Virus record (IMG/VR): IMGVR_UViG_3300032313_000518
Span: 32,001 to 96,000 of that record
Direction: 5' to 3' (one strand)
Length of the DNA: 64,000 bases
Origin: a virus
Shown: piece after piece, positions 1,871 through 19,546 of the stretch
Layout: every line of letters begins with the position of its first letter
Numbering within the stretch: the first letter of the stretch is position 1
The notes under the pieces: generated by a model
Databases searched by the model: none
What the model saw: the letters and a program-made list of their open reading frames with translations, nothing else
Told to the model about the DNA's origin: nothing
Translations under genes and position numbers: made by a program

Positions 1871-1906
1871 AAGGTGTTTGATATTTATATTCGGACACCT
1901 TTTTTT
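1871..1906 (+). terminator. rho-independent terminator with the late-promoter motif in its loop
   Basis: Stem AAGGTGTTTGA/TCGGACACCTT, loop TATTTATAT, then a T-run. Confidence 0.7.
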
Positions 1907-1963: not shown

Positions 1964-2632
1964 ATGAAAAATAATGTAACATCAATTGGTTCAAACATTA
2001 GTGAGTTAGGTACTAACTTTCTATTGTTCATCGTATCTTCTATTGTAGCAATAGGATTATGTACTCAAGCATATTTTGTGTATCTTAACGTTTCTGGTAA
2101 CAATGAAACTGCAAAAAACTTATCAACTAAATTTGATGAGAAGTTTAATGGATATTACAAAAACACACCTGGTAATATATTCTATAATGATGATAGTATA
2201 TACTATATGGAAGAAAATGAAGTGTGGGTTGATGGTGTAACTAATCAGGTTAAGATTGGTAAGTTAGCCGGAAATCGTAATTTAGAATTTGGAGTTAAAA
2301 ACATATTAGAAGAATATATCCAAGAAACAGGATATGCTCTTACTGAAAACGCAAGTAAAAAAATTAAAGTTGAGATAATCTATTTAGATGTACTCACAAC
2401 AAAAAAGAACATATCGGTTTTTCATAGTAATGAAGAAGAGGTAGTTATTCGTTTACGTGGAATGTTATATAAAGATGGTAAAAAAGTGAAAGATGTTATA
2501 GTGGAGGAATCATCATCGGAAGTATCAATGTCAACGCTGATAGTAGACGGTGGTGGTAAGTTCAATCAAACTTCTTTAAGCAATGCGCTGAAGAAAGGTT
2601 CTGGTAAACTTATTACTAAACTATTTCAGTAA
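1964..2632 (+). CDS. membrane-anchored CsgG/FlgO-like envelope protein
   Basis: N-terminal TM helix; alpha/beta pattern NLEFGVKNILEEYIQE..KIKVEIIYLD..FNQTSLSNALKK resembles the protein at 8937 (FNQSTIGTSTKKAL). Confidence 0.5.
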   Translation: MKNNVTSIGSNISELGTNFLLFIVSSIVAIGLCTQAYFVYLNVSGNNETAKNLSTKFDEKFNGYYKNTPGNIFYNDDSIYYMEENEVWVDGVTNQVKIGKLAGNRNLEFGVKNILEEYIQETGYALTENASKKIKVEIIYLDVLTTKKNISVFHSNEEEVVIRLRGMLYKDGKKVKDVIVEESSSEVSMSTLIVDGGGKFNQTSLSNALKKGSGKLITKLFQ

Positions 2633-4255
2633 ATGAAAAATTTCTTATTGGCTCTGGTACTATCACTAGTATCATTAACATCTTTTGGTCAATTAATCAT
2701 TAACCAAGAGGTAACTAACTCTAAACCTTATAGAGTTGGTGATACACTAACGGTAAGGTATAACGTTATTAAAGGAACTACAAACCCTAGATTTCTTTGG
2801 ATGCGTTATCAATACTCAAACAAACACCTACAAAAATTAGGTAATACTGTATTCTCACAAGGAGCAACTGCACAAAATTTTGAAGCAACTTGGCCCAACT
2901 ATATGTTCACACAAAACCCAGCAATTGGAGTTGGTGAATTGGATAAACAATATGGTTCAACCCCTTGGAACTATACCGCAAACAATGATTGGATAGCGAA
3001 GCAATTTACAACACAAAGAGCAGATGCGGTAATTGATGGTTTGTGGGCAACTGAAAAGTACATCTTATTAGAAAACTCAACATATCAAGCAATACACAAA
3101 TTGGATTTAGCAACTGCAAATGGAACAAACGATGCGGCAATTACACCAATTGGTTCTCAAGTTCTTCAATTATCATTTGCTGATGCAGATGTAAAGCACG
3201 TATCGGCATTTAGAGTAAGAGTTGGATATCCAGCTAACTTTCCAATTACTTCATTATCAGTATTAATCCAACCATTAAACACAGATGGAACTACCAATTT
3301 TACTGCTCCACAAATAGCAAAGAAATCATTAAACTCAGCAGGAATTGCAGATTTTGAACAATTTAATATTGGTGATAAATTTGGTGTATATATTGTTCCA
3401 ACTACTGGAGCAGATTATCTAAACAATGTAATAACTGTTACCGATGCTTATAGAGCATTTTTAGCAGTAACCGATGTTGGATTAAATGGAACATCATCCG
3501 TATTTCAATATCCTGCAATTGAAAAAATGATTGGTAATGTAACAATTGGAGATGGTGATTTTAACAACAACGATGCTTACTATTTATTTGCACATATTTT
3601 AGGACAAGATGTGACAGCAAAAGCAAACATAACTAAACAAAGTGCAAATCCATTACGATTTATATCAGTAAAACAATCAGTATATCCTACTATTACAAAT
3701 GCAGCAACTAACAATTCAGTAAACATAACATCTGCAAATCAAACTGAAATATTCTCTTATGCATTTAGTGGTGATTTGGACTTCTCTCATTCATCTAACC
3801 CAGCTATACCAATAACAAATAGTGTAGGTGGGCAAGGAACAATGAATAGAACGATAACTAATAAAGGAATATATTCAAATCAATTAGCTGGAAATGCAAC
3901 ATTAAGTTTATCATCTAAAATTGAAAACAACAAAGTTATCCTAAGTGGTAACTTAACGCAAGCTGGATTAGCAGGTTTGGAAGTTATTTTGAAATATGAT
4001 AATTCTAAATTAACTTTGGATGGTATTGTATTTGATGCGGGTTCATCTATAACTAACTTCTCAACGGATAAAGATGGTAGATTAACGTTTGGTTCAATGG
4101 ACCAAATTAAAACTGCTAGAATCAAAACGGGTACACCATACAAATTAACTTTCACATCCAATGTTCCCTTAACAAATACTGCAGGTTTATTTTATACTGA
4201 ATTAGCAGATGCAGTTGATGGAAACGGAAATAAGATTGGATTAAATGTAGAGTAA
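2633..4255 (+). CDS. secreted protein with cohesin-like, dockerin-like and cohesin-like domains
   Basis: Signal peptide; VGDTLTVRY..RYQYSNKHL; dockerin-like ITVTDAY..GNVTIGDGDFNNNDAYYLFAHILG..GDLDFSHS; C-terminal LAGLEVILKYDNSKL cohesin pattern. Confidence 0.6.
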   Translation: MKNFLLALVLSLVSLTSFGQLIINQEVTNSKPYRVGDTLTVRYNVIKGTTNPRFLWMRYQYSNKHLQKLGNTVFSQGATAQNFEATWPNYMFTQNPAIGVGELDKQYGSTPWNYTANNDWIAKQFTTQRADAVIDGLWATEKYILLENSTYQAIHKLDLATANGTNDAAITPIGSQVLQLSFADADVKHVSAFRVRVGYPANFPITSLSVLIQPLNTDGTTNFTAPQIAKKSLNSAGIADFEQFNIGDKFGVYIVPTTGADYLNNVITVTDAYRAFLAVTDVGLNGTSSVFQYPAIEKMIGNVTIGDGDFNNNDAYYLFAHILGQDVTAKANITKQSANPLRFISVKQSVYPTITNAATNNSVNITSANQTEIFSYAFSGDLDFSHSSNPAIPITNSVGGQGTMNRTITNKGIYSNQLAGNATLSLSSKIENNKVILSGNLTQAGLAGLEVILKYDNSKLTLDGIVFDAGSSITNFSTDKDGRLTFGSMDQIKTARIKTGTPYKLTFTSNVPLTNTAGLFYTELADAVDGNGNKIGLNVE

Positions 4256-6189
4256 TGAGAAAACTGCTTGTTGTAATATTAATATTATTATCCAGTAGTA
4301 TATCCATAGCACAATCCATTACACAACCAACCGCTAGAAAGTTTGAATTAAACCTAAGTGGGCAGGCGTGTAGTGGATTTGTTTTGAATGGATTTACTTC
4401 TACTGATATTTTGTTGGCATCCATAGGGTTTATTAATCCACCAGCAGGTACAACATTCAATTTAACCACAACAACGGGATTATCACCCGCATCTGGATTT
4501 ACTTTAAGTGGTAATAAAAGTAAATTAGTTTTTACGGGTACAATGGCAAACATAAACAATGCATTGGCAACCTTAAAAATAAATACGGGTGCAACTGCGG
4601 GTAGTGTTCAGGTATCCGTATCAGCAACTATAAATCCAACTGGGTTTTATTATAATCCAATAAACGGACACTTTTACAAACCTGTAACAACCGGTGTTAC
4701 CTATACTGCAGCTAGAGCGGCAGCATTAACAACAACATTCAAAGGACAAACAGGATATTTGGTAACAATTACTTCTGCTGATGAAAATTCTTTTATATTT
4801 GTTAATGTACCACAAGCTAACATATGGTTTGCGGCAACGGATGAAGTAACGGATGGAACTTGGGTAATCGATGCAGGACCTGAAAAAGGAACTGTAATGA
4901 AAACATCGAATGGGCAAACTGCCGGAAACAGACCTGGTGTATATAACAACTGGGCAGGTGGTGAACCCAATGGATACAATCATAGTGAGGATTATGCAGT
5001 AACTAATTGGAATGGGCAATCAACTTGGAATGATTTATCAAATAATTGGAGTAACCCATACATAATTGAATATGGAACTTGGACTAATCCAGATTCACAA
5101 ACATTTACTGATTTTTATTCAGCAAACGTAATAAACCCCATAGACGTACCATCATCAAAAGTTAATTTTTATTTTGGTGGTAATATAAATCCATCACAAT
5201 GGTCTATAAAAGCATATACTGCAAATGGTGTAACTCCTGTTAGTACAACTACTGGTTTAACTTTGGGTGCAAATGGCAGTGTGGTTAATACAACGGATTT
5301 TGTTAAATCTAAAACTGATATGGTACTATATTTATCAAAACTACCATCCGCCACTTTAACAAGTCTATATGGTAGTGTATTAACTGTTGGTGATGCGTAT
5401 TTGGCATTTCAAGAGTTATCTGATAGAGGATTAACTGGAACTGAAAGTAAAGCATTTACAAGTGGAGTACAATTTTTAAATGGAGATGTAGATGGTAACA
5501 ATGTATTTAATGAAATAGATTCCTACAAAATATTACAACACGTTATAGGTAGTACACCAATTGTTTCTACTTGGAGTGAAAGTAATTTATTTAGATTTGT
5601 AAAAAAATCTACATTCGATGGTATAACTAAAGCAAATTGGGCAACAACCAATACACCATATTCAGCAATTTATCCTTTGGCAGTTAATGCAACTATAAAT
5701 GATTATGTGTACGATGTGGTGGTGGCATTAAAGGGTGATGTAAACCTTTCACATACAGTAGCACAAAATAGACCTACTACTCAAAGTACAAATCGTACAA
5801 TGAATTTAAGTATGCCTATGGAAGTATCAACCTATGTATCAAGCGAAATAGTGGATGGTAAGGTAGTAGTAACTATAAAAGTTAATACATTGGGGCAATT
5901 GGTAAAAGGGATTCAATTAAAGTTAAACTATGATAGTGATATTTTAAAATATGAAAATACCGAATATACAACTTCTGGTAATCCTTTAAACTTTTCAAAT
6001 GATATTGGCAACTGCATAAGTTTTGGTTCTTTAATTTATAATAGTAATGGTTTATTAAACAATAATACGGAATACAAATTAACATTTACACCAAAAGAAG
6101 TCATAACTAATACAATTGGTTTAACATCAATTGAGGGAATTGATGCGGTAAATGTGAGTGGTTCAACTCTTAAAATTAAAAACTTATAA
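4255..6189 (+). CDS. secreted C-type lectin + dockerin + cohesin protein
   Basis: Signal peptide; C-type lectin GYLVTITSADENSFI..IWFAATD..YNNWAGGEPN..EDY..WND; dockerin GDVDGNNVFNEIDSYKILQHVIG; cohesin VKGIQLKLNYDSDIL. Confidence 0.75.
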   Translation: MRKLLVVILILLSSSISIAQSITQPTARKFELNLSGQACSGFVLNGFTSTDILLASIGFINPPAGTTFNLTTTTGLSPASGFTLSGNKSKLVFTGTMANINNALATLKINTGATAGSVQVSVSATINPTGFYYNPINGHFYKPVTTGVTYTAARAAALTTTFKGQTGYLVTITSADENSFIFVNVPQANIWFAATDEVTDGTWVIDAGPEKGTVMKTSNGQTAGNRPGVYNNWAGGEPNGYNHSEDYAVTNWNGQSTWNDLSNNWSNPYIIEYGTWTNPDSQTFTDFYSANVINPIDVPSSKVNFYFGGNINPSQWSIKAYTANGVTPVSTTTGLTLGANGSVVNTTDFVKSKTDMVLYLSKLPSATLTSLYGSVLTVGDAYLAFQELSDRGLTGTESKAFTSGVQFLNGDVDGNNVFNEIDSYKILQHVIGSTPIVSTWSESNLFRFVKKSTFDGITKANWATTNTPYSAIYPLAVNATINDYVYDVVVALKGDVNLSHTVAQNRPTTQSTNRTMNLSMPMEVSTYVSSEIVDGKVVVTIKVNTLGQLVKGIQLKLNYDSDILKYENTEYTTSGNPLNFSNDIGNCISFGSLIYNSNGLLNNNTEYKLTFTPKEVITNTIGLTSIEGIDAVNVSGSTLKIKNL

Positions 6190-7088
6190 TGAAAAAGTTT
6201 ATAATTACTCTTATCTTTATACTTACAGTACAAATGTGGGGATATTCTCAAACTGTATCAATACCGGATACTATGCAACTATCCGCAAAGGAATTATTTG
6301 ATGAAAGCGATGATTGGAATGATTTGGGTATATTAGAATCTTATATTGATTTTTCAAAAGATGTTCTATCATCATCTAATCTATCAGTTGGTATAATTGG
6401 AAGGCAAGTATCAACTACTATAAATTTAGGATATAGTAAGTGGTCTAAAAATGGTATGTATGGGCATTCATTTTCAACATCAATAAATCCAATATGGAAA
6501 TACTATGGGTTGGGTTATGGATTTAGTAAAAATACGGATAAAAGAACAACAACTTTACAATCATTTTATTCAACCGATTTTGATTTTCAAAAAGATATTA
6601 ACCTTTCATTCATAGATGTTTATAGAACTAAAAAGTGGGGAACATTTGGATATAGTTTAATAGCATCAAAAACATATTGGGGTTCTTATGAGGGAGAGTG
6701 GGAAGGAAAATATACAGTAGATTCGGATGGCAACTTTTTGGATTTGATATATCCAACAATTCCTGCATCATCTCAATTAACTTATAAAGGAATGTTGATG
6801 TACACTTATACATTTAAAACAAAGATGGTTGATATATCGCCACAACTATTTGGTATGAGTGATGTTTATGTAGATTTTAAAGATGGTACTGAATCTGATT
6901 TGGCTTATGTAAATGATTTCAATTTAGACTTGTATTATGGTACATCTTTGGATTGGAAACTAACTAAAAGATTCGTATTGAATACTAACATTAGATTTAA
7001 TAAGACTTGGGATAAATTATCAAAATCCGTTGGTTATAAAAAGAGTAACCCAATAATGTTTATGATTGGAACAAACTTTCAATTTTAA
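6189..7088 (+). CDS. outer-membrane beta-barrel protein
   Basis: Signal peptide, amphipathic aromatic strands, C-terminal Phe (MIGTNFQF); similar to the C-terminal domain of 17936-19546. Confidence 0.65.
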   Translation: MKKFIITLIFILTVQMWGYSQTVSIPDTMQLSAKELFDESDDWNDLGILESYIDFSKDVLSSSNLSVGIIGRQVSTTINLGYSKWSKNGMYGHSFSTSINPIWKYYGLGYGFSKNTDKRTTTLQSFYSTDFDFQKDINLSFIDVYRTKKWGTFGYSLIASKTYWGSYEGEWEGKYTVDSDGNFLDLIYPTIPASSQLTYKGMLMYTYTFKTKMVDISPQLFGMSDVYVDFKDGTESDLAYVNDFNLDLYYGTSLDWKLTKRFVLNTNIRFNKTWDKLSKSVGYKKSNPIMFMIGTNFQF

Positions 7089-7091
7089 GGT

Positions 7092-7436
7092 ATGAAGTGG
7101 AGTAAAATTATAATTTGGTGTTGTGTACTTTCTATAATATCTTGTCAAAATGAATATATAGTAGAACCACAAATAATTGATATTTTTAAAGTAGAACAAT
7201 CTACTCTATCAAATAAAAGTGAAATTAGTTTTAATGTGCAAAAGGAAGGGATATACATTGTAACTATGGTAGATAAAAATACCAATCAAGTTCTAAGTAG
7301 AGAAAAAATAAAATGTATTATAGGTAAAAATAAAATAAAGGTTTATACGAAAACAATACCAAGTCAATATTTATATTTGACATTGGAAGATAGTTTTGAT
7401 AATCAGTTAGGAAAAACAACAATAACAATAAAATAA
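7092..7436 (+). CDS. lipoprotein consisting of a T9SS C-terminal-domain-like fold
   Basis: Lipobox IISC; GIYIVTMVD..GKNKIKVYTKTIPSQYLYLTL..LGKTTITIK; paralog of the next ORF. Confidence 0.55.
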   Translation: MKWSKIIIWCCVLSIISCQNEYIVEPQIIDIFKVEQSTLSNKSEISFNVQKEGIYIVTMVDKNTNQVLSREKIKCIIGKNKIKVYTKTIPSQYLYLTLEDSFDNQLGKTTITIK

Positions 7437-7438
7437 AG

Positions 7439-7810
7439 ATGAAAAAAGTATTAGGATTATTAGCAATGATTTGCATAGTTGCAAGTTGTACCAATGAAGA
7501 TTTGTTAGTACCAACAACAACGGAAGTAACTGAAAAATTACAAATAGTTGGCAATATGGGTATTAAAGTAGAAACTCCATTTGTAAAAAATGAAGTTGCT
7601 ATGAATGTAAAAGCTGAAACTGCTGGAACATATGTAGTAAAGATATTAAACATAGCAAACAAATCAGTATCAAAAGAAGAAGTAACTATAAAAGCTGGTA
7701 ACAATCTATTAAAGATTTATGCAAACGCTTTACCATCTTCAGCATATAGAATTGGTCTATTCGATTTAGAAGGAAACTTACTTGGGATAGCAGATTTTAA
7801 CAAGTTATAA
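7439..7810 (+). CDS. lipoprotein consisting of a T9SS C-terminal-domain-like fold
   Basis: Lipobox VASC; TPF..GTYVVKILNIANKSV..IKAGNNLLKIYANALPSSAYRIGL..FNKL resembles the type A Por secretion tail. Confidence 0.6.
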   Translation: MKKVLGLLAMICIVASCTNEDLLVPTTTEVTEKLQIVGNMGIKVETPFVKNEVAMNVKAETAGTYVVKILNIANKSVSKEEVTIKAGNNLLKIYANALPSSAYRIGLFDLEGNLLGIADFNKL

Positions 7811-7837
7811 TTAAAACAAATATAAATAAAGAATAAA

Positions 7838-8164
7838 ATGTCAGAGGAAACAGAAAACTCAGGAGGCGGTTCATTAAAGAGTATTTTAATTGGACTTGCT
7901 AGCACAGTCGCATTGGGAGTTGGTGGTTATGTAACCAAACAACTAACAGGTGAAAAAGATGAGCCGGCAGCTGCAACATCAGCACCAGCACCGGTAATCA
8001 ACATTACCAATTCACAAACGCAACAACAATCTGCTGGTGGTAAAACTATAATCATCAACAAAGGTGGTAATGGAAACGGAGCAGCAGCGCCAGCAGCAGC
8101 ACCAACTCCTAAACCAAAGAAAAAAGAAGGAGACGAGTTCAAAGAAGAAAAACCACAATGGTAA
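7838..8164 (+). CDS. single-TM protein with a Pro/Ala-rich tail
   Basis: One hydrophobic segment, low-complexity linker, C-terminal KPQW. Confidence 0.7.
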   Translation: MSEETENSGGGSLKSILIGLASTVALGVGGYVTKQLTGEKDEPAAATSAPAPVINITNSQTQQQSAGGKTIIINKGGNGNGAAAPAAAPTPKPKKKEGDEFKEEKPQW

Positions 8165-8170
8165 TATAGT

Positions 8171-8506
8171 ATGGAGAATCAACAACCGGATGGATTTAAG
8201 CAACTCTTAAATCAAATGATGAAACGCAGGTGGTTAATTACATTAATTGTGTTAATTACTTTTATGTTTACTACATTTGGAATTATGATTTCTATTCATA
8301 TAGATACGGCTGTTGGACAAGAATGGAAAGAATTATTATTACTTTTATTAGGGGCATTTATTGGTTCTTATGGTAAGATTATAGATTACTGGTTTTCTGA
8401 TACTGATAAAGATAAGATGTTAGTTCAGAAAATGGATGAAGAAGATGGAGTATCTCTTTCAAATACCGGTGGAGCAGCAGAATCATCGGAAGAAGAATTA
8501 GGTTAA
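8171..8506 (+). CDS. two-TM membrane protein (holin-like)
   Basis: Two TM helices, KIIDYWFS motif, acidic tail ending EEELG. Confidence 0.55.
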   Translation: MENQQPDGFKQLLNQMMKRRWLITLIVLITFMFTTFGIMISIHIDTAVGQEWKELLLLLLGAFIGSYGKIIDYWFSDTDKDKMLVQKMDEEDGVSLSNTGGAAESSEEELG

Positions 8507-8580
8507 ATTTTATAATAATAAGTTACACCCAAATACGTTTTAATAATTGGTTATATTAAATAACAATTAAATAAAAGATT

Positions 8581-8868
8581 ATGGGATTTTTTAAAGAATT
8601 ATTCAGCGATGACAATCAAATAAATGAGAAATCGGTAGTTGGATTCGCATCATTCGCAGTAATGGTAATATGTATCGCTGTTGATTTAGTAACCGGATAT
8701 ATTGGAAAAGAATTAGTGATTAACGAATATGTGTTTAACGCATTTCTAACACTAACATTGGGTTCATTCGGTATTGGTTCAGTTGATAAGTTTATCAACA
8801 AAAAAGCTGAAAATGATAAAGCTAAAATTGAAGCAGATAGTTCATCCGATGAGGAAGAGTTAGGATAG
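8581..8868 (+). CDS. two-TM membrane protein (holin-like)
   Basis: Two TM helices, GSFGIGSVDKF, acidic tail ending EEELG. Confidence 0.55.
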   Translation: MGFFKELFSDDNQINEKSVVGFASFAVMVICIAVDLVTGYIGKELVINEYVFNAFLTLTLGSFGIGSVDKFINKKAENDKAKIEADSSSDEEELG

Positions 8869-8871
8869 TAC

Positions 8872-8904
8872 AAAAGGGAGAAAGTTTTTTTCTCCCTTTT
8901 TTTT
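8872..8904 (+). terminator. rho-independent terminator
   Basis: AAAAGGGAGAAA / TTTCTCCCTTTT stem plus T-run, directly followed by TATTTATA. Confidence 0.8.
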
Positions 8905-8905
8905 A

Positions 8906-8913
8906 TATTTATA
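8906..8913 (+). promoter_or_regulatory. putative late promoter TATTTATA
   Basis: 23 nt before the CsgG-like ATG. Confidence 0.65.
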
Positions 8914-8936
8914 CATAAACAAAAACAAAATTATGT

Positions 8937-9656
8937 ATGAAAAAATTATTGCTATTATTAAGTTTATGTTCGTTAAGCAGTGTTGCAGTAGGACAAACGG
9001 TAGGAAAAACTCAAACTGAAAACTACAAAGCATCATTTGAAACGAAGGTTGACATTAGTGAGTTGATGGACTATGATGGACCAACAATTCCAGTACAAAT
9101 CTTAAAATGTGGAATCAGCGATGAAATTTTGGAACAGTATCCGGAACTTAAAGAAAAGAAGGTGGGCCTTGGTGTTGCTAATATATCTATGGAATACCTT
9201 GAAAATCTCAATCGTTTTACTTTTACTGAAGATAAGACGGAGTTAAAGAACAGAATGGTTGCTCAATTCAAAGCATCCCAATCTGGTATCTCTCAGGACA
9301 AATTAGATGGTAGAGGTAAAATTCGTTTAGCACATTACTTTGTTACAATCGAAGTATATGATTTCTCCGTTTCCGAAGATGAGACAGTTAATCTAAAAGA
9401 TGGAGTAAAGAATAAGATGGTTACTCGTCTGGGTTTGCAAGTTCGTTTTACTGATGCTGAAACCGGAGAGGTATTTGGCGCAAGTGGTTTGGGTGAAGCA
9501 ACTACAACCAGAGAGTTATCTTTAATATCCGATGCAACAATCGATGATGTTAAATTTAACCAATCAACAATCGGAACATCTACAAAGAAAGCATTAGATA
9601 TTGCTTGTAGTAGAATTCTTCTTCGTATGATAAAGAAGGGGAAGTTCCCAAAATGA
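8937..9656 (+). CDS. CsgG/HfaB-family envelope protein
   Basis: Signal peptide; GVANISMEYLENLNRFTFTE..SQSG..GKIRLAHYFVTIEVYDF..LGLQVRFTDAETGEV..GLGEA follows the CsgG pattern. Confidence 0.7.
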   Translation: MKKLLLLLSLCSLSSVAVGQTVGKTQTENYKASFETKVDISELMDYDGPTIPVQILKCGISDEILEQYPELKEKKVGLGVANISMEYLENLNRFTFTEDKTELKNRMVAQFKASQSGISQDKLDGRGKIRLAHYFVTIEVYDFSVSEDETVNLKDGVKNKMVTRLGLQVRFTDAETGEVFGASGLGEATTTRELSLISDATIDDVKFNQSTIGTSTKKALDIACSRILLRMIKKGKFPK

Positions 9657-9662
9657 TAAATT

Positions 9663-10403
9663 ATGACTAAAAGAGAAGTATTATATAATGCTAGTTTAGC
9701 AGTATTAGCATATTCAAAAGAAGAGCAAATTAAGTGGAGTGATTATGGGTTAGAGTTAGTGAAGTGGATTCACAACGATAAATCAGATACACAGGGATTT
9801 GTAGCAACGCGGGATAAAGCAATCTATGTTGTGTGGAGAGGTAGTGAATCAAAGAAGGATTTTCAAAATGATGCTTCAATTGATAAAGTACCATTTATAA
9901 ACGATGGAGAGAAAGTACACATTGGATTTAAATATTGTTGGGAATCGGTAGTGGGTGATACCTATGATGCAATCGATATTGCAATAGAAAACCTACAAGG
10001 AGAAACTACGGATATTGTAGTTTGTGGACATAGTTTGGGTGGAGCAATAGCAACATTGTATGCACACTCAATTAAGAAACACTATCCACATTACAACATT
10101 AAATCCGTAACAATTGGAAGTCCAAGAGTTGGCAACAAAACATTTAAGGACAATTACGATTCATATGAGATTGATACTTTGAGAGTGGTACACAATAACG
10201 ATTTGGTAACACATACACCATACATTAGATTTTATCACGTAAACTATCAATTAAGATTAGATAGTGATGGTAATGTATTAAAGAGAGATACATCATTAAA
10301 TGCATTATGGTTATACCTTAAAGCAATATTTTCAGGTAGTAATATCAAAGACCATATGGGTGATGGGTATATGAAAGCATTACAAAATTGGGTAACAAAA
10401 TAA
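9663..10403 (+). CDS. class 3 lipase (alpha/beta hydrolase)
   Basis: VVWRGS, KVHIGF, GHSLGG nucleophile elbow, GSPRVGN, HNNDLV, C-terminal DHM. Confidence 0.9.
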   Translation: MTKREVLYNASLAVLAYSKEEQIKWSDYGLELVKWIHNDKSDTQGFVATRDKAIYVVWRGSESKKDFQNDASIDKVPFINDGEKVHIGFKYCWESVVGDTYDAIDIAIENLQGETTDIVVCGHSLGGAIATLYAHSIKKHYPHYNIKSVTIGSPRVGNKTFKDNYDSYEIDTLRVVHNNDLVTHTPYIRFYHVNYQLRLDSDGNVLKRDTSLNALWLYLKAIFSGSNIKDHMGDGYMKALQNWVTK

Positions 10404-10727: not shown

Positions 10728-11528
10728 ATGGGAAGTGCTGGAAAAGCAATTGAAAACGCATTTGTAGATGCGGGAAATGCAATTAACGATAATGTTATTA
10801 AACCAATCGCAGATGTAGTAGTAGATGCGGGAAATGTGATTAATGATAATGTAATTCAACCAATCGCAGGTGGTATAAACACTGCAATAGGTAGTGTAGA
10901 AGATGCATACAACTATTCAGTAGCATTTGCTACCGATAGTGCACATAGAGTAGAAAGCGCAGCTTGTACTATTGCAAGTACTACTGAAGAATTTGCAAAG
11001 GTAGGATTCGATGTAACTCAAAACGAATTTGTTCAATTATCTAAACAAGCCGAACAACAAATTGTTGCAGGTGTTGAAATAGTGGCAGCAGGTGCAGTAG
11101 CTGCATATAATTGGGCAGATGCAAATGCTTGTACAATTGGAATAACTGCAGCAATCTCTACGGGTTGTGTTTTAGCATTTACACCGGCACAACCTGCTGG
11201 AGCAGCAACTTCAACTACATTATCATTGATGGCTACGCCGGTTCTTTACGTTGCAGATATGGCAGCTAAAATGGCAGTATCAACGGCAATGGGTGTAATA
11301 GTGGCAGATGGATTTTTAGCAATACCTGGTGTTGGTGGAAATGTTGACCCACAATTATTAAGAAATGTATGTTCAAATTGTATCTATTATAGTTTAGATT
11401 CAGCTGCATTATGGGCAACGCCTGCTGGAGTTGGTATCGCAATAGGAGCTGCAGTAGCACCAGTTGTTGCATCTTTGGTATGTACTAGAACTTGTCCTAA
11501 TGGATTCAGTAAAGCATTGGGTGCATAA
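10728..11528 (+). CDS. Ala/Val-rich hydrophobic protein with an N-terminal tandem repeat
   Basis: VDAGNxINDNVIxPIA repeated twice; hydrophobic Cys-containing C-terminal half. Confidence 0.65.
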   Translation: MGSAGKAIENAFVDAGNAINDNVIKPIADVVVDAGNVINDNVIQPIAGGINTAIGSVEDAYNYSVAFATDSAHRVESAACTIASTTEEFAKVGFDVTQNEFVQLSKQAEQQIVAGVEIVAAGAVAAYNWADANACTIGITAAISTGCVLAFTPAQPAGAATSTTLSLMATPVLYVADMAAKMAVSTAMGVIVADGFLAIPGVGGNVDPQLLRNVCSNCIYYSLDSAALWATPAGVGIAIGAAVAPVVASLVCTRTCPNGFSKALGA

Positions 11529-11612: not shown

Positions 11613-14096
11613 ATGAGGAAACTACTTTTATTATTAACGTTACTAATTCCCATAATATCCTTTTCACAAACCTTATCGGGTAAAACAAAATCAAATAAAG
11701 AAGAACTCATTGGAGTTACAATTTGGCTAACTAACAAAAATACAAATAAAAAAATTGGAAGTACATCTGATATCGAATCCAAATATCAATTCCAAAATGT
11801 AGTAGCTGGAAACTATTCAATCAAAGCATCATTTGTTGGATATAAAGAATATACAAAAGATATTACAATTAATGGAGATACCAATTTAGATATCCTAATT
11901 GAAGAAGATACAAAAGTATTGCAAGAAGTTGTAGTAAAGCAAGTAGCAAAGAAAGAAACTGCAACCGCACTTATCAATACACTTAAAGCATCTTACATTG
12001 TAGCAGATGGTTTATCAATCGAATCAATAAAGAAAACACCAGATAGAACTGTTGGAGATGCACTTAAAAGAGTTAGTGGTGTAACAATCCAAAACGATAA
12101 GTTTGTTTTAGTTAGAGGTTTAGCTGATAGATACAACTCGGCTCTACTAAACAAATCAATCCTACCATCAACCGAACCCGATAGAAGAGCATTCTCATTT
12201 GATATTATACCAACATCACTAATAGATAATATTATCATCAACAAAGGAGCATCGGCAAACCTACCGGGTGATTTCGCAGGAGGTTTGGTACAAATTACAA
12301 CAAAGGAAGTTAGTGGTGATTTCTTAAATGTATCATTGGGAGGAAGTTGGGGTTCACTATCAACGGGACAGAATTTTAGATTGGTAGACCCAATACAATT
12401 CCCATCAACGTTCCCATCAACAAACGGATATAGGATTGCTGGATTGGGTGATAGAAGAGCATACACTAAACTAATAGGTTCGCCACAATCCGAAGAGTTT
12501 TCATCTATTCCAAACTTAAATGGTAACTTATCATTTGGTGTTGTAAAAAACAAATGGAACATCTTATTCAGTTCAACAGCAAGAAATACATATTCAGCTA
12601 ATACAACCGAAAGAATCGATTATCAATCATCAACTGAATTAGCATACAATTACAAAGACTTAAATTACTCAAATGTACAATCTCTAAATGGATTATTGAA
12701 CATAGTTTATTTAGGAGAGAATCGTTATAGTTGGAAAACACTTGCTAACTACCAAAACGAAAAATCATTTTTAAGTAGAGTTGGTGAGAACTATGATAAT
12801 GTTCAGTATGTAGATAGTAAATCATCCAACTCAATTCAAAAGTTAGTATTCAATACACAATTTGAAGGTAAGATTAAAACATTGGATTTTAATGTAGGAT
12901 ATAATCTTATGTTGAGAGACCAACCTGATTATAGAGTAACACCTTACATATCATCTTTATATACATCAACACCTTATTCAATAGCATGGAGAGATACCTA
13001 TCGTTTTTGGAGTGTAATGGATGAAAACTCATTCAATGGGGGATTAAACAAATCCATAGGAGATATTCGTTTAGGAGTGGGTTACTTGAAGAAATTGAGA
13101 AACTTCAAAGCAAGAATATTCAGATACGAATCAATGGATTTATTAAATGAGATTACAAACAACACCGATAGATATACTGCCGATTTTGATTTGGCAAATG
13201 GATATGTGATGTATGAAAAAGAAATCAATGACCTAAAAGTAAATACAGGTTTTAGAACAGAATACAATTTATTCAAAGTTCAAACATCTGATTTTAGTGG
13301 ACAACGGATTTCAGTAGATAGAGAGTATTTGGATTTACTCCCATCATTAAACGCAACATATTCAACATCAGAAAAAACAAAGGTTAGATTATCGGTAAGT
13401 AAAACATTAGCAAGACCAGAGTTTAGAGAGGTAGCTAATTTTGCGTATTATGACTTTGTTAGAAACGCACAACTATTAGGAAATCCAAACTTACAAAAAA
13501 CGGATATATTCAATTCAGATATAAAGTTCGAGTTGTATCCTAAATCAGGTGAGAATATATCAATCGGTTTTTTTGGTAAGAAGTTCTTCAATCCAATTGA
13601 GCAAGTTGTAGCAGATGGTTCAGTTCCATCAAATCTATTATTAACATATAAAAATCCAAATGAAGCATTGGTATATGGAGTTGAAATTGAACTTCGTAAA
13701 AAATTAAATGATTGGTTAGATTTATATTCAAACACATCATTCATCAATTCGGAAGTTGATATAAATGGAATTAAAAGACAATTGCAAGGACAATCAAACT
13801 ATGTAGTAAATGGTGGATTGAACTTACATAAAAACAACAATACGTTCAACATATCATACAATAGAGTTGGAGATAGAATATCAGCAGTAGGATTTCAAGG
13901 ATACCCCGATATATTTGAAAACTCTCGTGATGTAGTTGATATTGTTATTCTTCGTAAAATTAAAAACGGAGAAATTAAATTAGCAGTATCGGATATATTC
14001 AGACAACCATTTGAGTATTACCAAAAACCAAATAGAACTTTAATTAAAACAAACAACGAAACAACAGTTTCACTAACACTAAATTACAACCTATGA
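11613..14096 (+). CDS. TonB-dependent receptor (Bacteroidota type)
   Basis: Signal peptide, carboxypeptidase-regulatory-like N-domain, LQEVVV, plug DALKRVSGV..VRGLADRYN, TLARPEFRE, GNPNL, C-terminal LNYNL. Confidence 0.92.
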   Translation: MRKLLLLLTLLIPIISFSQTLSGKTKSNKEELIGVTIWLTNKNTNKKIGSTSDIESKYQFQNVVAGNYSIKASFVGYKEYTKDITINGDTNLDILIEEDTKVLQEVVVKQVAKKETATALINTLKASYIVADGLSIESIKKTPDRTVGDALKRVSGVTIQNDKFVLVRGLADRYNSALLNKSILPSTEPDRRAFSFDIIPTSLIDNIIINKGASANLPGDFAGGLVQITTKEVSGDFLNVSLGGSWGSLSTGQNFRLVDPIQFPSTFPSTNGYRIAGLGDRRAYTKLIGSPQSEEFSSIPNLNGNLSFGVVKNKWNILFSSTARNTYSANTTERIDYQSSTELAYNYKDLNYSNVQSLNGLLNIVYLGENRYSWKTLANYQNEKSFLSRVGENYDNVQYVDSKSSNSIQKLVFNTQFEGKIKTLDFNVGYNLMLRDQPDYRVTPYISSLYTSTPYSIAWRDTYRFWSVMDENSFNGGLNKSIGDIRLGVGYLKKLRNFKARIFRYESMDLLNEITNNTDRYTADFDLANGYVMYEKEINDLKVNTGFRTEYNLFKVQTSDFSGQRISVDREYLDLLPSLNATYSTSEKTKVRLSVSKTLARPEFREVANFAYYDFVRNAQLLGNPNLQKTDIFNSDIKFELYPKSGENISIGFFGKKFFNPIEQVVADGSVPSNLLLTYKNPNEALVYGVEIELRKKLNDWLDLYSNTSFINSEVDINGIKRQLQGQSNYVVNGGLNLHKNNNTFNISYNRVGDRISAVGFQGYPDIFENSRDVVDIVILRKIKNGEIKLAVSDIFRQPFEYYQKPNRTLIKTNNETTVSLTLNYNL

Positions 14097-15295
14097 AAAA
14101 ATTATTAGTATTGTTCGCAAGTTTAACAATCTTTGGATGTTCTAAAGATTTGGGTGGAGAAGTTACACCAATCAATGTACCAACCTCAACAACTTTGAGT
14201 GGTAACATCACATCAACTACAACTCTTACATCGGATAAAGAGTGGGTATTAAAAGGATATGTTTATGTAACCGATGGTGCTAAACTTATCATTCAACCTG
14301 GCACAACAATCAAATCTGATATAAGTGAGAAAGGTGCATTGTGTATTGAAAGAGGAGCACAAATTGTAGCAGAAGGTACTGTAGCAAAACCAATCATATT
14401 CACATCTGGTAGACCTGCTGGAGAAAGAACACCTGGTGATTGGGGTGGTATTGTAATATTGGGTAGAGCAAAAACCAATAGAACGGCAGAACCAACTATC
14501 GAAGGTGGTATCGGAAGACCTTATGGTGGAACAAACGATTTAGATAATAGTGGTGTTCTAAAATATGTAAGAATTGAATACGCTGGAATTGCAGCAATGC
14601 CAAACTCTGAAATCAACGCACTAACATTGGGTGGAGTTGGTAGTGGAACAATTATTGAGAATGTTCAAACTATCTACGCTAACGATGATGCATTTGAATT
14701 CTTTGGTGGAACTGTAAATGCTAAAAACTTATATGCATATGGAACTGCGGATGATGATTATGATTTTGATTTTGGATATAGAGGAAAAGTATCTTTTTCA
14801 GTATCAAAGAGAGACCCACAATTCGTAGATAATGGTGATGCGGGAAATGGTGTAGAGTGTGATAATGATGGAACAGGTTCAACAGCAGAACCATTTACAC
14901 ATCCTATTTTAGATAATATGATTTTAGTTGGGCCTAACGATGCAACATCTTTAGCAAACCACAATTTAGCAATGAGATGGAGAAGAGCAACTCAATTTGA
15001 GGTTTACAATTCTACAATCATTGGATATATGAAAGGTGGTTTCTCAATGGAAAGTAATGAAACTGCACAATTCTACAAAGATGGTGTAAGTAAGTTTCAG
15101 AACAATAAAATTGGTTCATACAACTTATTAAACTTTATCAGTAAGGCAACTACTATTATTACATCGGATGTAGTTAAAACAAAAGCATTAAGTGAAGGTA
15201 ATACTGAAATAACTTTAACTCCAACCGAAATAGAAACCTTATCTAAACCAATTTGGACAGCAGGTTGGACTAAATTCCCAACGAAAGGAAACTAA
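14093..15295 (+). CDS. surface lipoprotein with a right-handed beta-helix, partner of the TonB-dependent receptor
   Basis: Lipobox IFGC; KPIIFTS..PGDWGGIVILG, DNSGVLKYVRIEYAG, DDAFEFFGG, DDDYDFDFGY; overlaps the receptor stop (ATGA). Confidence 0.8.
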   Translation: MKKLLVLFASLTIFGCSKDLGGEVTPINVPTSTTLSGNITSTTTLTSDKEWVLKGYVYVTDGAKLIIQPGTTIKSDISEKGALCIERGAQIVAEGTVAKPIIFTSGRPAGERTPGDWGGIVILGRAKTNRTAEPTIEGGIGRPYGGTNDLDNSGVLKYVRIEYAGIAAMPNSEINALTLGGVGSGTIIENVQTIYANDDAFEFFGGTVNAKNLYAYGTADDDYDFDFGYRGKVSFSVSKRDPQFVDNGDAGNGVECDNDGTGSTAEPFTHPILDNMILVGPNDATSLANHNLAMRWRRATQFEVYNSTIIGYMKGGFSMESNETAQFYKDGVSKFQNNKIGSYNLLNFISKATTIITSDVVKTKALSEGNTEITLTPTEIETLSKPIWTAGWTKFPTKGN

Positions 15296-15296
15296 A

Positions 15297-16010
15297 ATGA
15301 AAGATAAATTAACTATCATCATCCCATCAAAAAACGAAAGCGATACTTTATATGATTGCTTACAATTTTTGTATAATCAAACGGATATAGATGGTTTTAG
15401 AGTTATAGTAGCAGATATATCAGATGACCCATATTCGGTTGGTATTTTATATAAAGCAAGAAGTAATTTCAAAGATAAATTAAAAATTGAAGTAATAAAA
15501 GGTGGGTATCCATCGGAAGGTAGATTGGCAGGTTCTAAACTTGCCAATACTCCTTACATTCTGTTTTTAGATGCAGATGTATTTCTTACAAACCATAGTT
15601 TGTTAAGTGATATATTCAAAAAGTTGGAAACAACAAAGATAGAACTATTAACTACACCATTTCAAACTTCTAAAAAATGGAATTGGGTGTTTCGTATTTT
15701 TGATATATTCCAATGGTTGAGTGTAAAGATAAACTCACCATTTGCAGTAGGTGGATTTCAGTTATGGGATAGACAAGCATATTGGAAAGTAGGGGGATAT
15801 AAAAAAGATGAATTGTTTGCGGAAGATTATTCACTTTCATCAAAATCAAATCCAAAGTATTTTCATATACATAAAACAAACGGAGTTTGGACATCACCTC
15901 GTAGATTTCAAAACAAAGGAGTATTCTATATGGTTTCTTTAATGATGCAAAGTTACATCAACAGAAATAATCCTGAATTTTTCAAACAACATCACAATTA
16001 TTGGGTTTAA
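15297..16010 (+). CDS. family 2 glycosyltransferase
   Basis: LTIIIPSKNE, ILFLDAD, VGGY..FAED, TSPRRF. Confidence 0.9.
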   Translation: MKDKLTIIIPSKNESDTLYDCLQFLYNQTDIDGFRVIVADISDDPYSVGILYKARSNFKDKLKIEVIKGGYPSEGRLAGSKLANTPYILFLDADVFLTNHSLLSDIFKKLETTKIELLTTPFQTSKKWNWVFRIFDIFQWLSVKINSPFAVGGFQLWDRQAYWKVGGYKKDELFAEDYSLSSKSNPKYFHIHKTNGVWTSPRRFQNKGVFYMVSLMMQSYINRNNPEFFKQHHNYWV

Positions 16011-16012
16011 TT

Positions 16013-16108
16013 ATGGGCACTATATTTCCTTTTCTTTTTGGATTTGCAGTTGTTATAGCAGGTTGTATTGTTATGATGATTGTAGACCAAATTTCTAAAA
16101 AAAGATAA
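16013..16108 (+). CDS. 31-aa single-TM peptide (not in the ORF track)
   Basis: MGTIFPFLFGFAVVIAGCIVMMIVDQISKKR*; fills the gap and its stop overlaps the next ATG (TAATG). Confidence 0.6.
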   Translation: MGTIFPFLFGFAVVIAGCIVMMIVDQISKKR

Positions 16109-16818
16109 TGTACAAATATATCATAGTATCAGATTTACATTTAGGTACTAAACATAGTAAAGCAAAGGAGTTCTTACAATTCATAGAAGAGAACCCATGC
16201 GAACAACTTATTCTCAATGGGGATATAGTTGATGGATGGGCATTGCAAAGAGGAACTAAATGGAGAACATCTCACACAAAGGTAATTGCTAAACTAATAA
16301 AACTATCCACAAAGCAAAAGGTAGTTTGGATACGGGGAAATCACGATGATTTTCTTAAAGATTTTATTGGTACTAATTTGGGTAATATAAAAATCAGAGA
16401 AGATTATATTATTACCGCAGATAAAAGATACTTCATATTTCACGGAGATATTATAGATGTATTTATTACAAAATACAAATGGTTATCACAAATAGGAGCG
16501 GTTGGATACGATTTTGCTTTATTACTAAATGACGTGTATAATTGGTATCGTAAGTGGAGAAATCTACCTTATTATTCAATATCACAAAGAATAAAAGAGG
16601 GTGTTAAAATAGCAACCAATTATGTTAATGATTTTGAAACAACCGCAATCCGAATGGCAGGTGATAAGATGTGTGATGGTGTTATTTGTGGACACATTCA
16701 CCAACCCGCTGACAGAATGATTGGTAAAAAACACTATCTCAATTCAGGAGATTGGGTTGAGAATATGACAGCAATCTGTATAAATGATAACAATAATATA
16801 ACAATTAAAAGAATATAA
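16108..16818 (+). CDS. plcP: PlcP-like metallophosphoesterase (phospholipase C; LpxH superfamily)
   Basis: SDLHLG, GDIVDGW, GNHD, HGD, KWLSQIG..Y, PYYSIS..IK..VK, DGVICGHIH, YLNSGDWVE..TA. Confidence 0.75.
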   Translation: MYKYIIVSDLHLGTKHSKAKEFLQFIEENPCEQLILNGDIVDGWALQRGTKWRTSHTKVIAKLIKLSTKQKVVWIRGNHDDFLKDFIGTNLGNIKIREDYIITADKRYFIFHGDIIDVFITKYKWLSQIGAVGYDFALLLNDVYNWYRKWRNLPYYSISQRIKEGVKIATNYVNDFETTAIRMAGDKMCDGVICGHIHQPADRMIGKKHYLNSGDWVENMTAICINDNNNITIKRI

Positions 16819-16824
16819 TTGTGA

Positions 16825-16832
16825 TATTTATA
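16825..16832 (+). promoter_or_regulatory. putative late promoter TATTTATA
   Basis: 20 nt before ATG 16853. Confidence 0.65.
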
Positions 16833-16852
16833 TATACAAACTAAACAAATAA

Positions 16853-17935: not shown

Positions 17936-19546
17936 TTGAAAAAGTTAAAAGTTTTATTAAGTGTATTATTCATATTCTGTCTAGCTTCCAAAGCTAACGG
18001 ACAAACAACATTTACACAAACATTTATAGATAAGTGTACTGGAGAAGTAAAACTCGCCACCACTACCTATGTCAATGGAAATGCCTTTGTATCATTCTAT
18101 GACCAAATGAAAGTATTCTCACCCGAAGAAGTTCAAAGTGGTGCAATGAAAATTTGGTTACAAGCAGTTTACCTTGCTTATGCAAATAAGACTTGTGCAA
18201 CTGCAACGGTAGTTCAACAAACCATTCAACAAACGGTAAACCAAGCAGTTCAACAAGCAGCATCTCAAGCGGCTCAACAGGCAGCAGCTCAAGCCGCATC
18301 ACAAGCAGCAGCTCAAGCGGCTTCACAAGCAGCAGCTTCAGCCGCACAATCGGCAGCAGCTTCGGCAGCTCAATCAGCGGCAAGTTCAGCTGCATCATCT
18401 GCTGCTTCTTCTGCGGCAAGTTCAGCGGCAAGTTCAGCTGCATCATCTGCCGCTTCTTCTGCGGCTAGTGGAGCGGCTTCATCGGCAGCTGGTTCTGCGG
18501 CTAGTGGAGCAGCAGCTTCGGCAGCCGGAGCGGCAGTACCACCACCCCCACCAACTCCATCCGCACCTGCTCCTAGCGCTCCGGCTCCTTCTGGTGGAGG
18601 TTCACCTACCCCATCATCAAATAGTTCTTCTGGTGGAGGAAACGGAGGTGGTAGTTCATCACCAAAAGCAGAAGCAAAAGCTGAGGCAAAAGCTGAGGCA
18701 AAAGCCGAAGCTAAAGCTGAATCAAAATCGGAAAGTAAGAGTGAATCTAAATCAGAATCCAAATCCGAATCCAAAGAAGAAAGTAAATCCGAAAGTAAAA
18801 GTGAGGAAAAGAAAGAAGAATCAAAATCGGAATCTAAAAAAGAAGAAAAGAAAGAAGAGAAAAAGGAAGAGAAGAAACAAAAAGCAGCACCAATAAATCC
18901 ATTATTATTGGCATCGGATTTAAGTGTAGTAGAATCCGAACCTGGTAGTTGGCAGGCAATCCTATCAACTGGTGTATCTCGTTCATCAATGGCTGGAGAT
19001 GAAAGTTATTCAGCTAGTTCAATGATTTGGAGTAATCTAAAACAATTTGCCCTAAGTGGTGGTTATACTAAGATGAACTTCAAAGATGGAGCATTACATT
19101 CTATGAACTCATACTCACTAACTGGTGCATATTTGGATAGAACCTATATGAGTTTAGTTGGATTGACAGTAATAATACCACACCCAAAGATTGGAGTATA
19201 TGGATACAATGTTGGTTTAGTTAATCTATTCTCACCAAAAGAAGGTGGGGGATATGGATATAGTGTAAGTAATTCTGGTGTTCTATTTTGGACTAAACCA
19301 TATCAAACTACAAAGAAATTAACACTATCACCGCAAGTGTTTACAATGTTACCTGGTGGAAGTTGGGATACAACCAATGGTACATTCACTTATAGTTCCG
19401 ATGTTGGATTATTATTGGGTACTTCGATTGATTACAAAATCAGTAAACGTTTTGGATTTAGTTTTAATTACAAAATCAATACGTCTACTGCTGCAGGGGC
19501 TCCGATATTAAGTAACTTTTTAATTGGTTCTAGATTGATGCTTTAA
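17936..19546 (+). CDS. secreted protein: small Cys domain, Ala/Ser and Glu/Lys low-complexity stalk, C-terminal beta-barrel
   Basis: TTG start, signal peptide, (AASS)n, poly-Pro, (EAKA)n/(ESKS)n/(EEKK)n; barrel similar to 6189-7088. Confidence 0.7.
   Translation: MKKLKVLLSVLFIFCLASKANGQTTFTQTFIDKCTGEVKLATTTYVNGNAFVSFYDQMKVFSPEEVQSGAMKIWLQAVYLAYANKTCATATVVQQTIQQTVNQAVQQAASQAAQQAAAQAASQAAAQAASQAAASAAQSAAASAAQSAASSAASSAASSAASSAASSAASSAASSAASGAASSAAGSAASGAAASAAGAAVPPPPPTPSAPAPSAPAPSGGGSPTPSSNSSSGGGNGGGSSSPKAEAKAEAKAEAKAEAKAESKSESKSESKSESKSESKEESKSESKSEEKKEESKSESKKEEKKEEKKEEKKQKAAPINPLLLASDLSVVESEPGSWQAILSTGVSRSSMAGDESYSASSMIWSNLKQFALSGGYTKMNFKDGALHSMNSYSLTGAYLDRTYMSLVGLTVIIPHPKIGVYGYNVGLVNLFSPKEGGGYGYSVSNSGVLFWTKPYQTTKKLTLSPQVFTMLPGGSWDTTNGTFTYSSDVGLLLGTSIDYKISKRFGFSFNYKINTSTAAGAPILSNFLIGSRLML
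18240..18880 (+). repeat. coding 12-nt-period low-complexity repeats
   Basis: Degenerate tetrapeptide repeats QAAS, SAAS, EAKA, ESKS, EEKK. Confidence 0.85.

Follow-up and report, generated by a model that had tools for sequence, protein, structure and literature searches.

What would a bacteriophage do with a run of ten consecutive genes whose products all seem destined to leave the cytoplasm? The question is raised by positions 1964-9656 of the DNA analysed here, a 64,000-nucleotide window that corresponds to bases 32001-96000 of the 110,968-bp IMG/VR virus record IMGVR_UViG_3300032313_000518 (completeness estimate 58%). The window has a G+C content of ~31%, and all of its called genes are on the + strand. 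Signs of a T4-like myophage are found downstream of the block, i.e. genes for a gp25-like baseplate protein, a baseplate wedge protein, SbcCD and the large terminase, and the closest cultured relative of the terminase is that of Flavobacterium phage vB_FspM_immuto (56% identity; hereafter immuto). The source is a large lake-water phage of Flavobacterium-type bacteria. As we show here, the block belongs to a real, conserved and uncharacterised phage envelope module in which known folds are newly combined. As to the role of this module, we tentatively favour surface or envelope display on the infected Bacteroidota cell.

All ten open reading frames (ORFs) of the block are present on the + strand. 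They are listed here together with an eleventh gene that belongs with them, and each is named below by its first position in the window (aa, amino acids; TM, transmembrane; T9SS, type IX secretion system):

1964..2632, + strand: B-type CsgG-superfamily protein of 222 aa with an N-terminal membrane anchor
2633..4255, + strand: secreted 540-aa protein with a signal peptide, a head, a dockerin-like segment (3404-3613) and a cohesin (~3878-4252)
4255..6189, + strand: secreted 644-aa protein with an N-domain, a lectin, a dockerin-like segment and a C-terminal cohesin
parts of 4255, + strand: lectin ~4663-5073, EPN motif 4963-4971, WND motif 5026-5034, dockerin-like segment 5353-5559, cohesin ~5815-6186
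6189..7088, + strand: probable outer-membrane beta-barrel (299 aa), paralogous to the C-terminal domain of 17936 and lacking a stalk
7092..7436, + strand: lipoprotein of 114 aa, the mature part a beta-sandwich resembling a T9SS sorting domain
7439..7810, + strand: paralogous lipoprotein (123 aa) whose Cys precedes a surface-export-like motif (x-K/N-D/E-D/E)
7838..8164, + strand: core small membrane protein, acidic at the N-terminus, with a single TM segment and a tail rich in Ala and Pro
8171..8506, + strand: small membrane protein with a TM segment at residues 22-40 and an acidic C-terminal tail, holin-like in shape only
8581..8868, + strand: small membrane protein that shares its acidic C-terminal end with 8171
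8937..9656, + strand: A-type CsgG-family protein of 239 aa with a type I signal peptide and without a lipobox
17936..19546, + strand: stalked core partner with a TTG start, a signal peptide, an N-domain, a stalk and a barrel-like C-terminal domain

The initial annotation of the block, made from the sequence, described ten consecutive genes that each encode a signal peptide, a lipobox or a TM segment, and this is borne out for all ten. Type I signal peptides are found in 2633, 4255, 6189 and 8937; the two lipoproteins, 7092 and 7439, have a lipobox followed by an acidic motif after the Cys that resembles the lipoprotein export signal (LES); and 1964 as well as the three small membrane proteins, 7838, 8171 and 8581, have a signal anchor or a TM segment, so that the two lipoproteins and three small membrane proteins of the earlier count are all accounted for. 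Export-type N-termini are encoded by 15 of the 51 window genes, with all 15 located within the first 20.5 kb and ten of them consecutive. Since such N-termini are limited to these clustered genes, the ten-gene run is far from chance. The common orientation of the ten genes, correctly reported earlier, carries little meaning since every called gene of the window is on the + strand. The residue at position +1 after the signal peptide is Gln in all four type I proteins and in every homolog of these four that was checked, as expected from the Bacteroidetes Q-rule (PMC5837995), and the LES consensus is the signal by which Bacteroidota export lipoproteins to the cell surface (PMC5080379). A Bacteroidota host fits because Gln follows every type I signal peptide and acidic residues follow the lipoprotein Cys.

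Are these genes a fortuitous neighbourhood or a unit? Linkage was counted in two sets of viral loci, 80 close ones and 80 much more diverse ones, the latter with family hidden Markov models (HMMs); below, A and B stand for the families of 8937 and 1964, respectively, and M for the gene located between them in the relatives described below. The order small membrane protein, CsgG-like A and stalked protein is nearly invariant over the 160 loci. The close loci keep the gene order of the block, with 7838 in 76 of the 80 (immediately upstream of the A gene in all 76), 8171 in 68, 17936 in 67 (after A), 1964 in 64 and 8581 in 45, while the cargo genes are more variable (4255 in 58, 2633 in 51, 7439 in 41, 7092 in 39 and 6189 in 23). 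In the diverse set the N-domain HMM of 17936 finds a match in 74 of the 80 loci, usually directly downstream of A, and the 7838 family is present in 72, almost always directly upstream of A. B-type genes are present in 60 of these diverse loci, cohesins in 58, 8581 in 39, 8171 in 38 and dockerins in 22, and the lipoproteins in 5-6 only. Genes of the module are, in short, co-conserved and not scattered. The same arrangement exists in a cultured phage: immuto encodes in a row a lectin (gp13), a cohesin protein (gp15), a 7838-family member (gp16), A (gp17), M (gp18, the counterpart of 17936) and finally B (gp19), and the lectin and the cohesin protein are already labelled as such in its GenBank record. 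Other phages carry alternative heads by the module, namely PA14 and Laminin_G_3 domains, as well as extra cohesins and T9SS sorting domains. The 8937-type gene has thousands of homologs in protein databases, the best ones mostly on metagenome contigs, and is found on hundreds of viral contigs.

This comparison also redraws the boundaries of the locus. The impression that two CsgG-like proteins bracket the block is an artefact of the coordinates chosen, as the module runs on to 17936-19546; in the window an 8-kb insert separates 8937 from 17936, two genes that are adjacent in most relatives. The range first annotated was too narrow and left out 17936, which is the most conserved partner; the core status of 7838 and the bacterial operon considered below had been missed as well.

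What, then, are the proteins? As judged from its predicted structure and from profile comparisons, 8937 is a remote CsgG homolog with a CsgG fold, which combines an alpha/beta core with a long C-terminal helix. The best Foldseek matches of its AlphaFold2 (AF2) model (predicted local distance difference test score, pLDDT, 79) are CsgG structures (E 5e-7 for 4uv2), and superposition on CsgG 6lqh (VIA) gives a Z score of 12.9 and a root-mean-square deviation (rmsd) of 3.1 Å over 179 residues. The matches that follow CsgG are PelC, LptE, PqiC, FlgT and TraT, outer-membrane lipoproteins of which several form rings, with Z scores of 9.7-9.8 for PelC and PelBC, 8.3-9.8 for the PelC and LptE class and 7.3 for TraT. 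In good agreement with the fold, hhalign relates the 8937 family to Escherichia coli CsgG over 223 columns (91%, E 1e-6), and the invariant Tyr-Pro of the family coincides in the alignment with that of the CsgG constriction loop. An exhaustive profile search yielded 219 representative relatives of 8937, of which 34 were aligned, and Pfam CsgG matches 19 of these 34 remote homologs (best 1.9e-17). The relationship is too distant for direct recognition: Pfam CsgG (PF03783) matches neither 8937 nor 1964 at E<=0.1 and, even at E<=10, nothing anywhere in the phage record, and among PDB sequences neither 8937 (phmmer) nor the 8937-family profile finds relatives.

For 1964 the connection is indirect. 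Direct hhalign comparison of the 1964 and 8937 families aligns only 26 columns. The B paralog encoded next to A in bacteria (see below) matches the 8937 family at 99.7% and the 1964 family at 97% (E 1e-10, 141 columns), and the 1964-family HMM in turn matches immuto gp19 and bacterial B proteins. Since bacterial B is homologous to both families, we place 1964 in the CsgG superfamily as its B type. Pfam Lipoprotein_16 (YajG) weakly matches 12 of 20 homologs of 1964 and TraT 3 of 20 family members; PDB sequences contain no relatives of 1964 by phmmer and none of the 1964-family profile. Many 1964 relatives have a cleavable signal peptide in place of the membrane anchor. The two CsgG-like proteins proposed at the outset are thus recovered by different routes, 8937 by fold, hhalign and homologs, and 1964 only through the bacterial B paralog.

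Relatives of 8937 are not limited to phages. A scan of species-representative genomes revealed true bacterial relatives with 30-37% identity in Ignavibacteriales, Cloacimonadota, KSB1, Chitinivibrionales, Fibrobacterota, Rhodothermales, Spirochaetia, Nitrospinota and other groups. The genes form an operon in the order A (a CsgG-like lipoprotein), M (~410 aa, secreted, with an aromatic C-terminal residue) and B (~210 aa):

bacterial A-M-B loci (L084-L097), for example L085:787-3591, L096:7725-10295 and L091:7959-10326

Bacterial A and B are homologous to 8937 and 1964, respectively, the difference being that bacterial A proteins are lipoproteins and 8937 is not. The order A, M, B is common to bacteria and phage immuto. 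The operon partners of A belong to no Pfam family, and no relative of cohesin, dockerin or 7838 was found in the bacterial A-M-B loci. Kinship between M and 17936 is weakly supported, mainly by gene order and by one HMM match: the 17936 N-domain HMM matches one bacterial M protein (7e-5), and hhalign of M against 17936 gives 10-17% probability with the signal peptides trimmed. Five further contigs, assigned to Flavobacterium, Sediminibacterium and Bacteroidetes metagenome-assembled genomes (L098-L102), carry the phage block itself with 54-77% identity to 8937 and with relatives of 1964, 7838, 8171 and 17936; these probably represent prophages or phage DNA placed in the wrong bin. As origins of the locus, a host operon and a prophage remnant were both rejected, given the T4-like baseplate, terminase and SbcCD genes of the window and the fact that the true bacterial relatives share A-M-B only, at the low identity given above.

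The outer-membrane barrel of the initial annotation, 6189, is a probable one. The protein has a signal peptide, ends in NFQF, contains 17% aromatic residues and many period-2 segments, and the named Atlas clusters closest to it all consist of outer-membrane barrels, a similarity that we take as a lead only. It aligns with the C-terminus of 17936 (hhalign 96% over 201 columns; BLASTP 36% identity over 72 aa). The larger protein, 17936, has a Cys-containing N-domain of ~70 aa and, beyond a low-complexity stalk of ~250 aa, a C-terminal barrel-like domain of ~215 aa that ends in L and has a weaker barrel-strand pattern than 6189. Profiles of its N-domain and barrel-like domain found no PDB relative, a large protein search returned unannotated relatives only, and no PDB or Pfam relative was found for either barrel candidate. 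A match of 17936 to the PHROG 'tail associated lysin' was discounted, as it sits within the low-complexity stalk.

Direct Pfam and PHROGs scans of the ten block proteins gave almost no matches besides the lectin of 4255 (PF00059, Lectin_C; 25.0 bits against a cut-off of 22.6, residues 165-270). The EPN motif of the lectin domain is located at residue 237 and its WND motif at residue 258; the usual disulfide cysteines are missing, and a C-type lectin domain is annotated in many 4255 homologs too. In C-type lectins, EPN and WND mark calcium-dependent binding of mannose, glucose or N-acetylglucosamine-type sugars. Over their last 300 residues, 2633 and 4255 can be aligned and have a common architecture. 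Pfam Cohesin matches 13 of 25 aligned homolog C-termini (best 4.1e-6) and Dockerin_1 matches 9 of 25 (best 8e-4), while the 4255 C-terminal fragment itself has no match to Pfam Cohesin (PF00963) at E<=0.1. The AF2 model of the 4255 C-terminus (pLDDT 78, predicted TM-score 0.75) superposes with its residues 177-300 on cohesin 4ums (Z 13.8, rmsd 2.2 Å, 123 residues), and the top 13 fold matches of the domain are all cohesins (Foldseek E 5e-7). Fold searches with this model recognised the cohesin domain and not the dockerin-like part. A profile of the 4255-type helical segment matches solved dockerins with E values from 2.6e-7 (8x39) to 0.03, among them the ScaH dockerin (1e-3) and several type I dockerins (0.004-0.03), and nearly all matches listed are dockerins. 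By sequence (phmmer), nothing in the PDB is related to the head of 2633. Two dockerin-plus-cohesin proteins, one of them with a C-type lectin, had been claimed for the locus, and the cohesin fold, the dockerin profile matches and PF00059 agree with this; among the folds expected, CsgG and cohesin are present by structure and dockerin by profile.

The two lipoproteins are of a simpler make. In the 7092 family the lipobox Cys is conserved and acidic residues come next. Por_Secre_tail weakly matches 13 of 27 family members and DUF3244 12, all below cut-off, and 7439 scores 20.1 bits against the T9SS sorting domain PF18962, for which the cut-off is 27. The sorting-domain-like region makes up the whole mature lipoprotein in both 7092 and 7439, unlike the architecture of T9SS cargo. 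The small membrane protein 8171 has no family match.

How the module might be transcribed is suggested by a recurrent motif and a hairpin:

TATTTATA copies, + strand: 1882, 8906, 16825, 17894, 21317, 25150, 31862, 36861, 38834, 45005, 57282, 57690
1882..1889, + strand: TATTTATA promoter-like motif, 82 nt upstream of gene 1964
8906..8913, + strand: TATTTATA promoter-like motif, 31 nt upstream of gene 8937
8872..8900, + strand: intrinsic-terminator-like hairpin with 13 pairs and a T run, which ends the first transcription unit

The motif occurs in 24 + strand copies in the window against ~9 expected, and 13 copies are located 12-82 nt upstream of start codons, including those of the baseplate operon and structural genes. 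It precedes 1964, 8937, 17936, the baseplate operon and other large genes; a copy inside 7092 is coding sequence. TATTTATA looks like a phage-specific promoter element, and its placement weakly hints at late expression of the module. Conservation is patchy, with TATTTATA present in 15 of 48 distinct upstream regions of 8937 homologs. The reading of TATTTATA as a conserved late promoter of the module is limited to the present phage and some relatives. The hairpin at 8872-8900 divides the block into two units.

The neighbouring genes are less regular. A class-3 lipase gene (9663-10403; Pfam 2.7e-30), whose product lacks a signal peptide, comes directly after 8937 and has the same place in 21 of 80 related loci; conceivably, the lipase helps to break down membranes at lysis. 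It is followed at 10728-11528 by a gene for a 266-aa protein with an N-terminal tandem repeat and Ala/Gly-rich hydrophobic segments and without a family match. The cassette at 11613-17893 encodes a TonB-dependent receptor-like protein, a lipoprotein with a surface-export-like motif, a glycosyltransferase of family 2 (GT2), a calcineurin-like phosphoesterase and a 346-aa protein; the insert between 8937 and 17936 thus comprises the lipase, TonB-dependent receptor, lipoprotein, GT2 and phosphoesterase genes, and the cassette occurs in only 13-18 of the 80 close loci. A membrane-anchored protein is encoded directly after 17936 (19866-20492) by the last window gene with an export-like N-terminus. 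Just upstream of the block, at 1473-1844, is the gene of a DUF5856 protein (PHROG 'starvation-inducible transcriptional regulator'), adjoined by that of a 249-aa protein without a family match.

Have systems of this kind been described? CsgG and CsgF genes have been published in pelagimyophages (the HTVC008M group) and in Methylophilales phage Melnitz (PMC7029224, PMC9004378). These are likewise aquatic T4-like phages with CsgG-family genes outside the usual curli context, for which guesses range from cell capture to lysis timing, the latter proposed for Melnitz CsgG/CsgF (PMC9004378); for pelagimyophage CsgG, macromolecule uptake is one published guess, as cited in PMC9004378. The two cases differ in that those phages have Proteobacteria hosts and a recognisable CsgG and CsgF, whereas here no CsgF is found and the phages infect Bacteroidota; over and above what the Melnitz type has, the present module contains a stalked barrel, a B-type paralog, cohesin-dockerin proteins and a lectin. 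The initial annotation knew of no described phage system of this composition. Given the published phage CsgG/CsgF and the immuto labels this holds in part: we found no paper on the combined module, no literature account of a cohesin-dockerin-lectin module in Bacteroidetes phages, and no analysis of the module genes in the literature on immuto.

Outside phages, E. coli CsgG (4uv3, 6lqh) is the best fold match of 8937, with profile homology over the full length. In type VIII secretion CsgG works in the curli system, whereas 8937 is accompanied by a stalked barrel, by a second, smaller paralog and by a small inner-membrane protein, and no Pfam match to curlin or CsgE was found among the ten block proteins. 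PelC-PelB (9h80) and LptE-LptD (5ixm) share with the module the fold class of 8937 and a barrel gene in one operon; PelB and LptD have no sequence relation to module proteins, the core contains no polysaccharide or lipopolysaccharide genes, and a ring in the module would be assumed by analogy. The cohesin is of the same fold as those of clostridial cellulosomes, Clostridium perfringens GH84C and Archaeoglobus (2xdh), and 4255 has the dockerin-type calcium loop and helix. In contrast to cellulosomes, here cohesin and dockerin are on one chain with one canonical repeat, the setting is a phage of Gram-negative bacteria, and a lectin is carried instead of an enzyme.

Building on the export signals, folds, homologies and gene linkage established above, we infer the rings, location, binding partners and purpose as follows. 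The products would exit the cytoplasm via the host Sec pathway and assemble in the outer envelope of the infected cell. The core would consist of inner-membrane-anchored 7838, A-type 8937, the stalked barrel 17936 (with 6189 as an extra stalk-less barrel) and B-type 1964. Because CsgG, PelC-PelB and LptE-LptD are arranged in this manner, the CsgG-fold proteins may form rings that adjoin or encircle the barrel at the inner face of the outer membrane. An accessory set comprising 2633, 4255 and the lipoproteins 7092 and 7439 would be kept at the surface or in the periplasm by cohesin-dockerin contacts, attached to the core or to each other, and could present the calcium-type sugar-binding lectin. 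The purpose would be to change what the infected-cell surface binds; possible outcomes are adhesion to neighbouring cells or polymers, or the masking of phage receptors, which would spare progeny from being lost to infected cells and debris. Surface or envelope display is suggested by the LES-like motif after the lipoprotein Cys, the variable cargo set and the recurrent lectin-type heads. A more elaborate version, possible but doubtful in our view, is a self-contained surface organelle in which a translocon made up of two CsgG-fold rings and a stalked barrel, taken from a bacterial envelope system, installs a self-assembling cohesin-dockerin coat with swappable lectin heads; such a coat on the dying host would alter what the infected cell sticks to, or what sticks to it.

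Several observations weigh against display. The calcium-binding features of the dockerins are eroded: 4255 has one canonical loop (D-x-D-x-N...N-x-x-D and a helix) and one degenerate segment, and in 2633 the first two calcium-ligand positions are hydrophobic and the ligands lost. No anchor that would tie the cohesin proteins to the core was identified. The lipobox Cys is lost in 8937 and its close relatives and kept in bacterial and more distant phage homologs, and both hairpin regions, though present, are 5 and ~10 residues shorter than in E. coli CsgG and charge-rich, with 50-80% charged residues at family positions 147-150 (AF2 draws one long hairpin). A pore formed by 8937 is doubtful since it has no lipobox and its hairpin regions are short and charged, and Pfam CsgF has no match in the phage record at E<=10. 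Of the export and display apparatus first proposed, the parts and their co-conservation stand, and an export channel for the cargo, though plausible, is made uncertain by the missing lipid anchor of 8937, by its hairpins and by the failure to find CsgF or a curlin-like substrate. Finally, the wide conservation of the core makes an essential step, e.g. lysis, a fair alternative.

That alternative would make the module a lysis or egress device, with the small membrane proteins as holins or anchors, the CsgG-like rings and the stalked barrel breaching or gating the outer membrane in a spanin-like job, and the lectin-cohesin proteins as add-ons. In its favour, the core is near-universal across very different phage backbones, and endolysin-type genes lie at most 4 kb from the module in several diverse loci: in the pooled flanks of 11 of these (L107-L172), Pfam detects GH19 in three ORFs, PG_binding_1 in three, Amidase_2 in one and Peptidase_M15_3 in one. 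The holin-like shapes of 8171 and 8581, the inner-membrane protein gene placed directly before an A gene whose product is an outer-membrane lipoprotein in most relatives, the promoter-like motif shared with baseplate genes, the lipase gene after 8937 and the role proposed for Melnitz CsgG/CsgF all point the same way. Against it stand the cohesins of 58 of the 80 diverse loci and the recurrent lectin-type heads, neither with an obvious role in lysis. Moreover, a search of this incomplete record for Glucosaminidase, Phage_lysozyme and Amidase_2 was negative, the Pfam and PHROGs scans matched no holin or spanin family at the thresholds used, the tail of 7838 is of low complexity and not a coiled coil, and the bacterial A-M-B relatives are cellular and not lysis genes. 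Altogether we consider lysis rather unlikely and regard it as the main competitor to display. Superinfection exclusion or receptor blocking, in which the sorting-domain-like lipoproteins and the lectin plug or coat the T9SS/gliding apparatus or a glycan receptor, would make sense of two lipoproteins that consist solely of a T9SS-sorting-domain-like domain and of the sugar-binding motif of the lectin; TraT, a surface-exclusion lipoprotein, is of the same fold class as 8937 and is weakly matched within the 1964 family as well. It is improbable nonetheless, as the T9SS-domain matches are all below the Pfam cut-off, the rarity of the lipoproteins in diverse loci would leave the core unexplained, and exclusion genes are usually small, early and sporadic, not a core of at least four genes. 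Polymer or nutrient transport, finally, would have the rings funnel polysaccharide to the barrel as in PelC-PelB, together with the TonB-dependent receptor, lipoprotein and glycosyltransferase. PelC and PelBC are indeed among the best fold matches, the receptor, lipoprotein, GT2 and phosphoesterase genes do lie between 8937 and 17936 in the window, and uptake of macromolecules is the guess cited above for pelagimyophages. We regard this as the least probable explanation, and a very improbable one: the cassette is an insert in a minority of close loci, the conserved core has no polymer synthase, and the cargo suggests protein-protein assembly rather than polysaccharide export.

If display is the role of the module and the surface of the infected cell is rebuilt, this would be a widespread and previously unrecognised phage action on the host envelope. 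Aggregation, attachment to particles and the loss of phages would then all be affected in lakes and seas, the waters in which Flavobacteria process algal carbon. The same finding would provide the first function for an uncharacterised three-gene envelope system of several bacterial phyla, and add a Gram-negative, viral setting to cohesin-dockerin biology. If the module serves an outer-membrane lysis step instead, it would fill a different gap in our picture of Bacteroidota phages. For either reading a cultured pair is at hand, phage immuto and Flavobacterium sp. LMO8.

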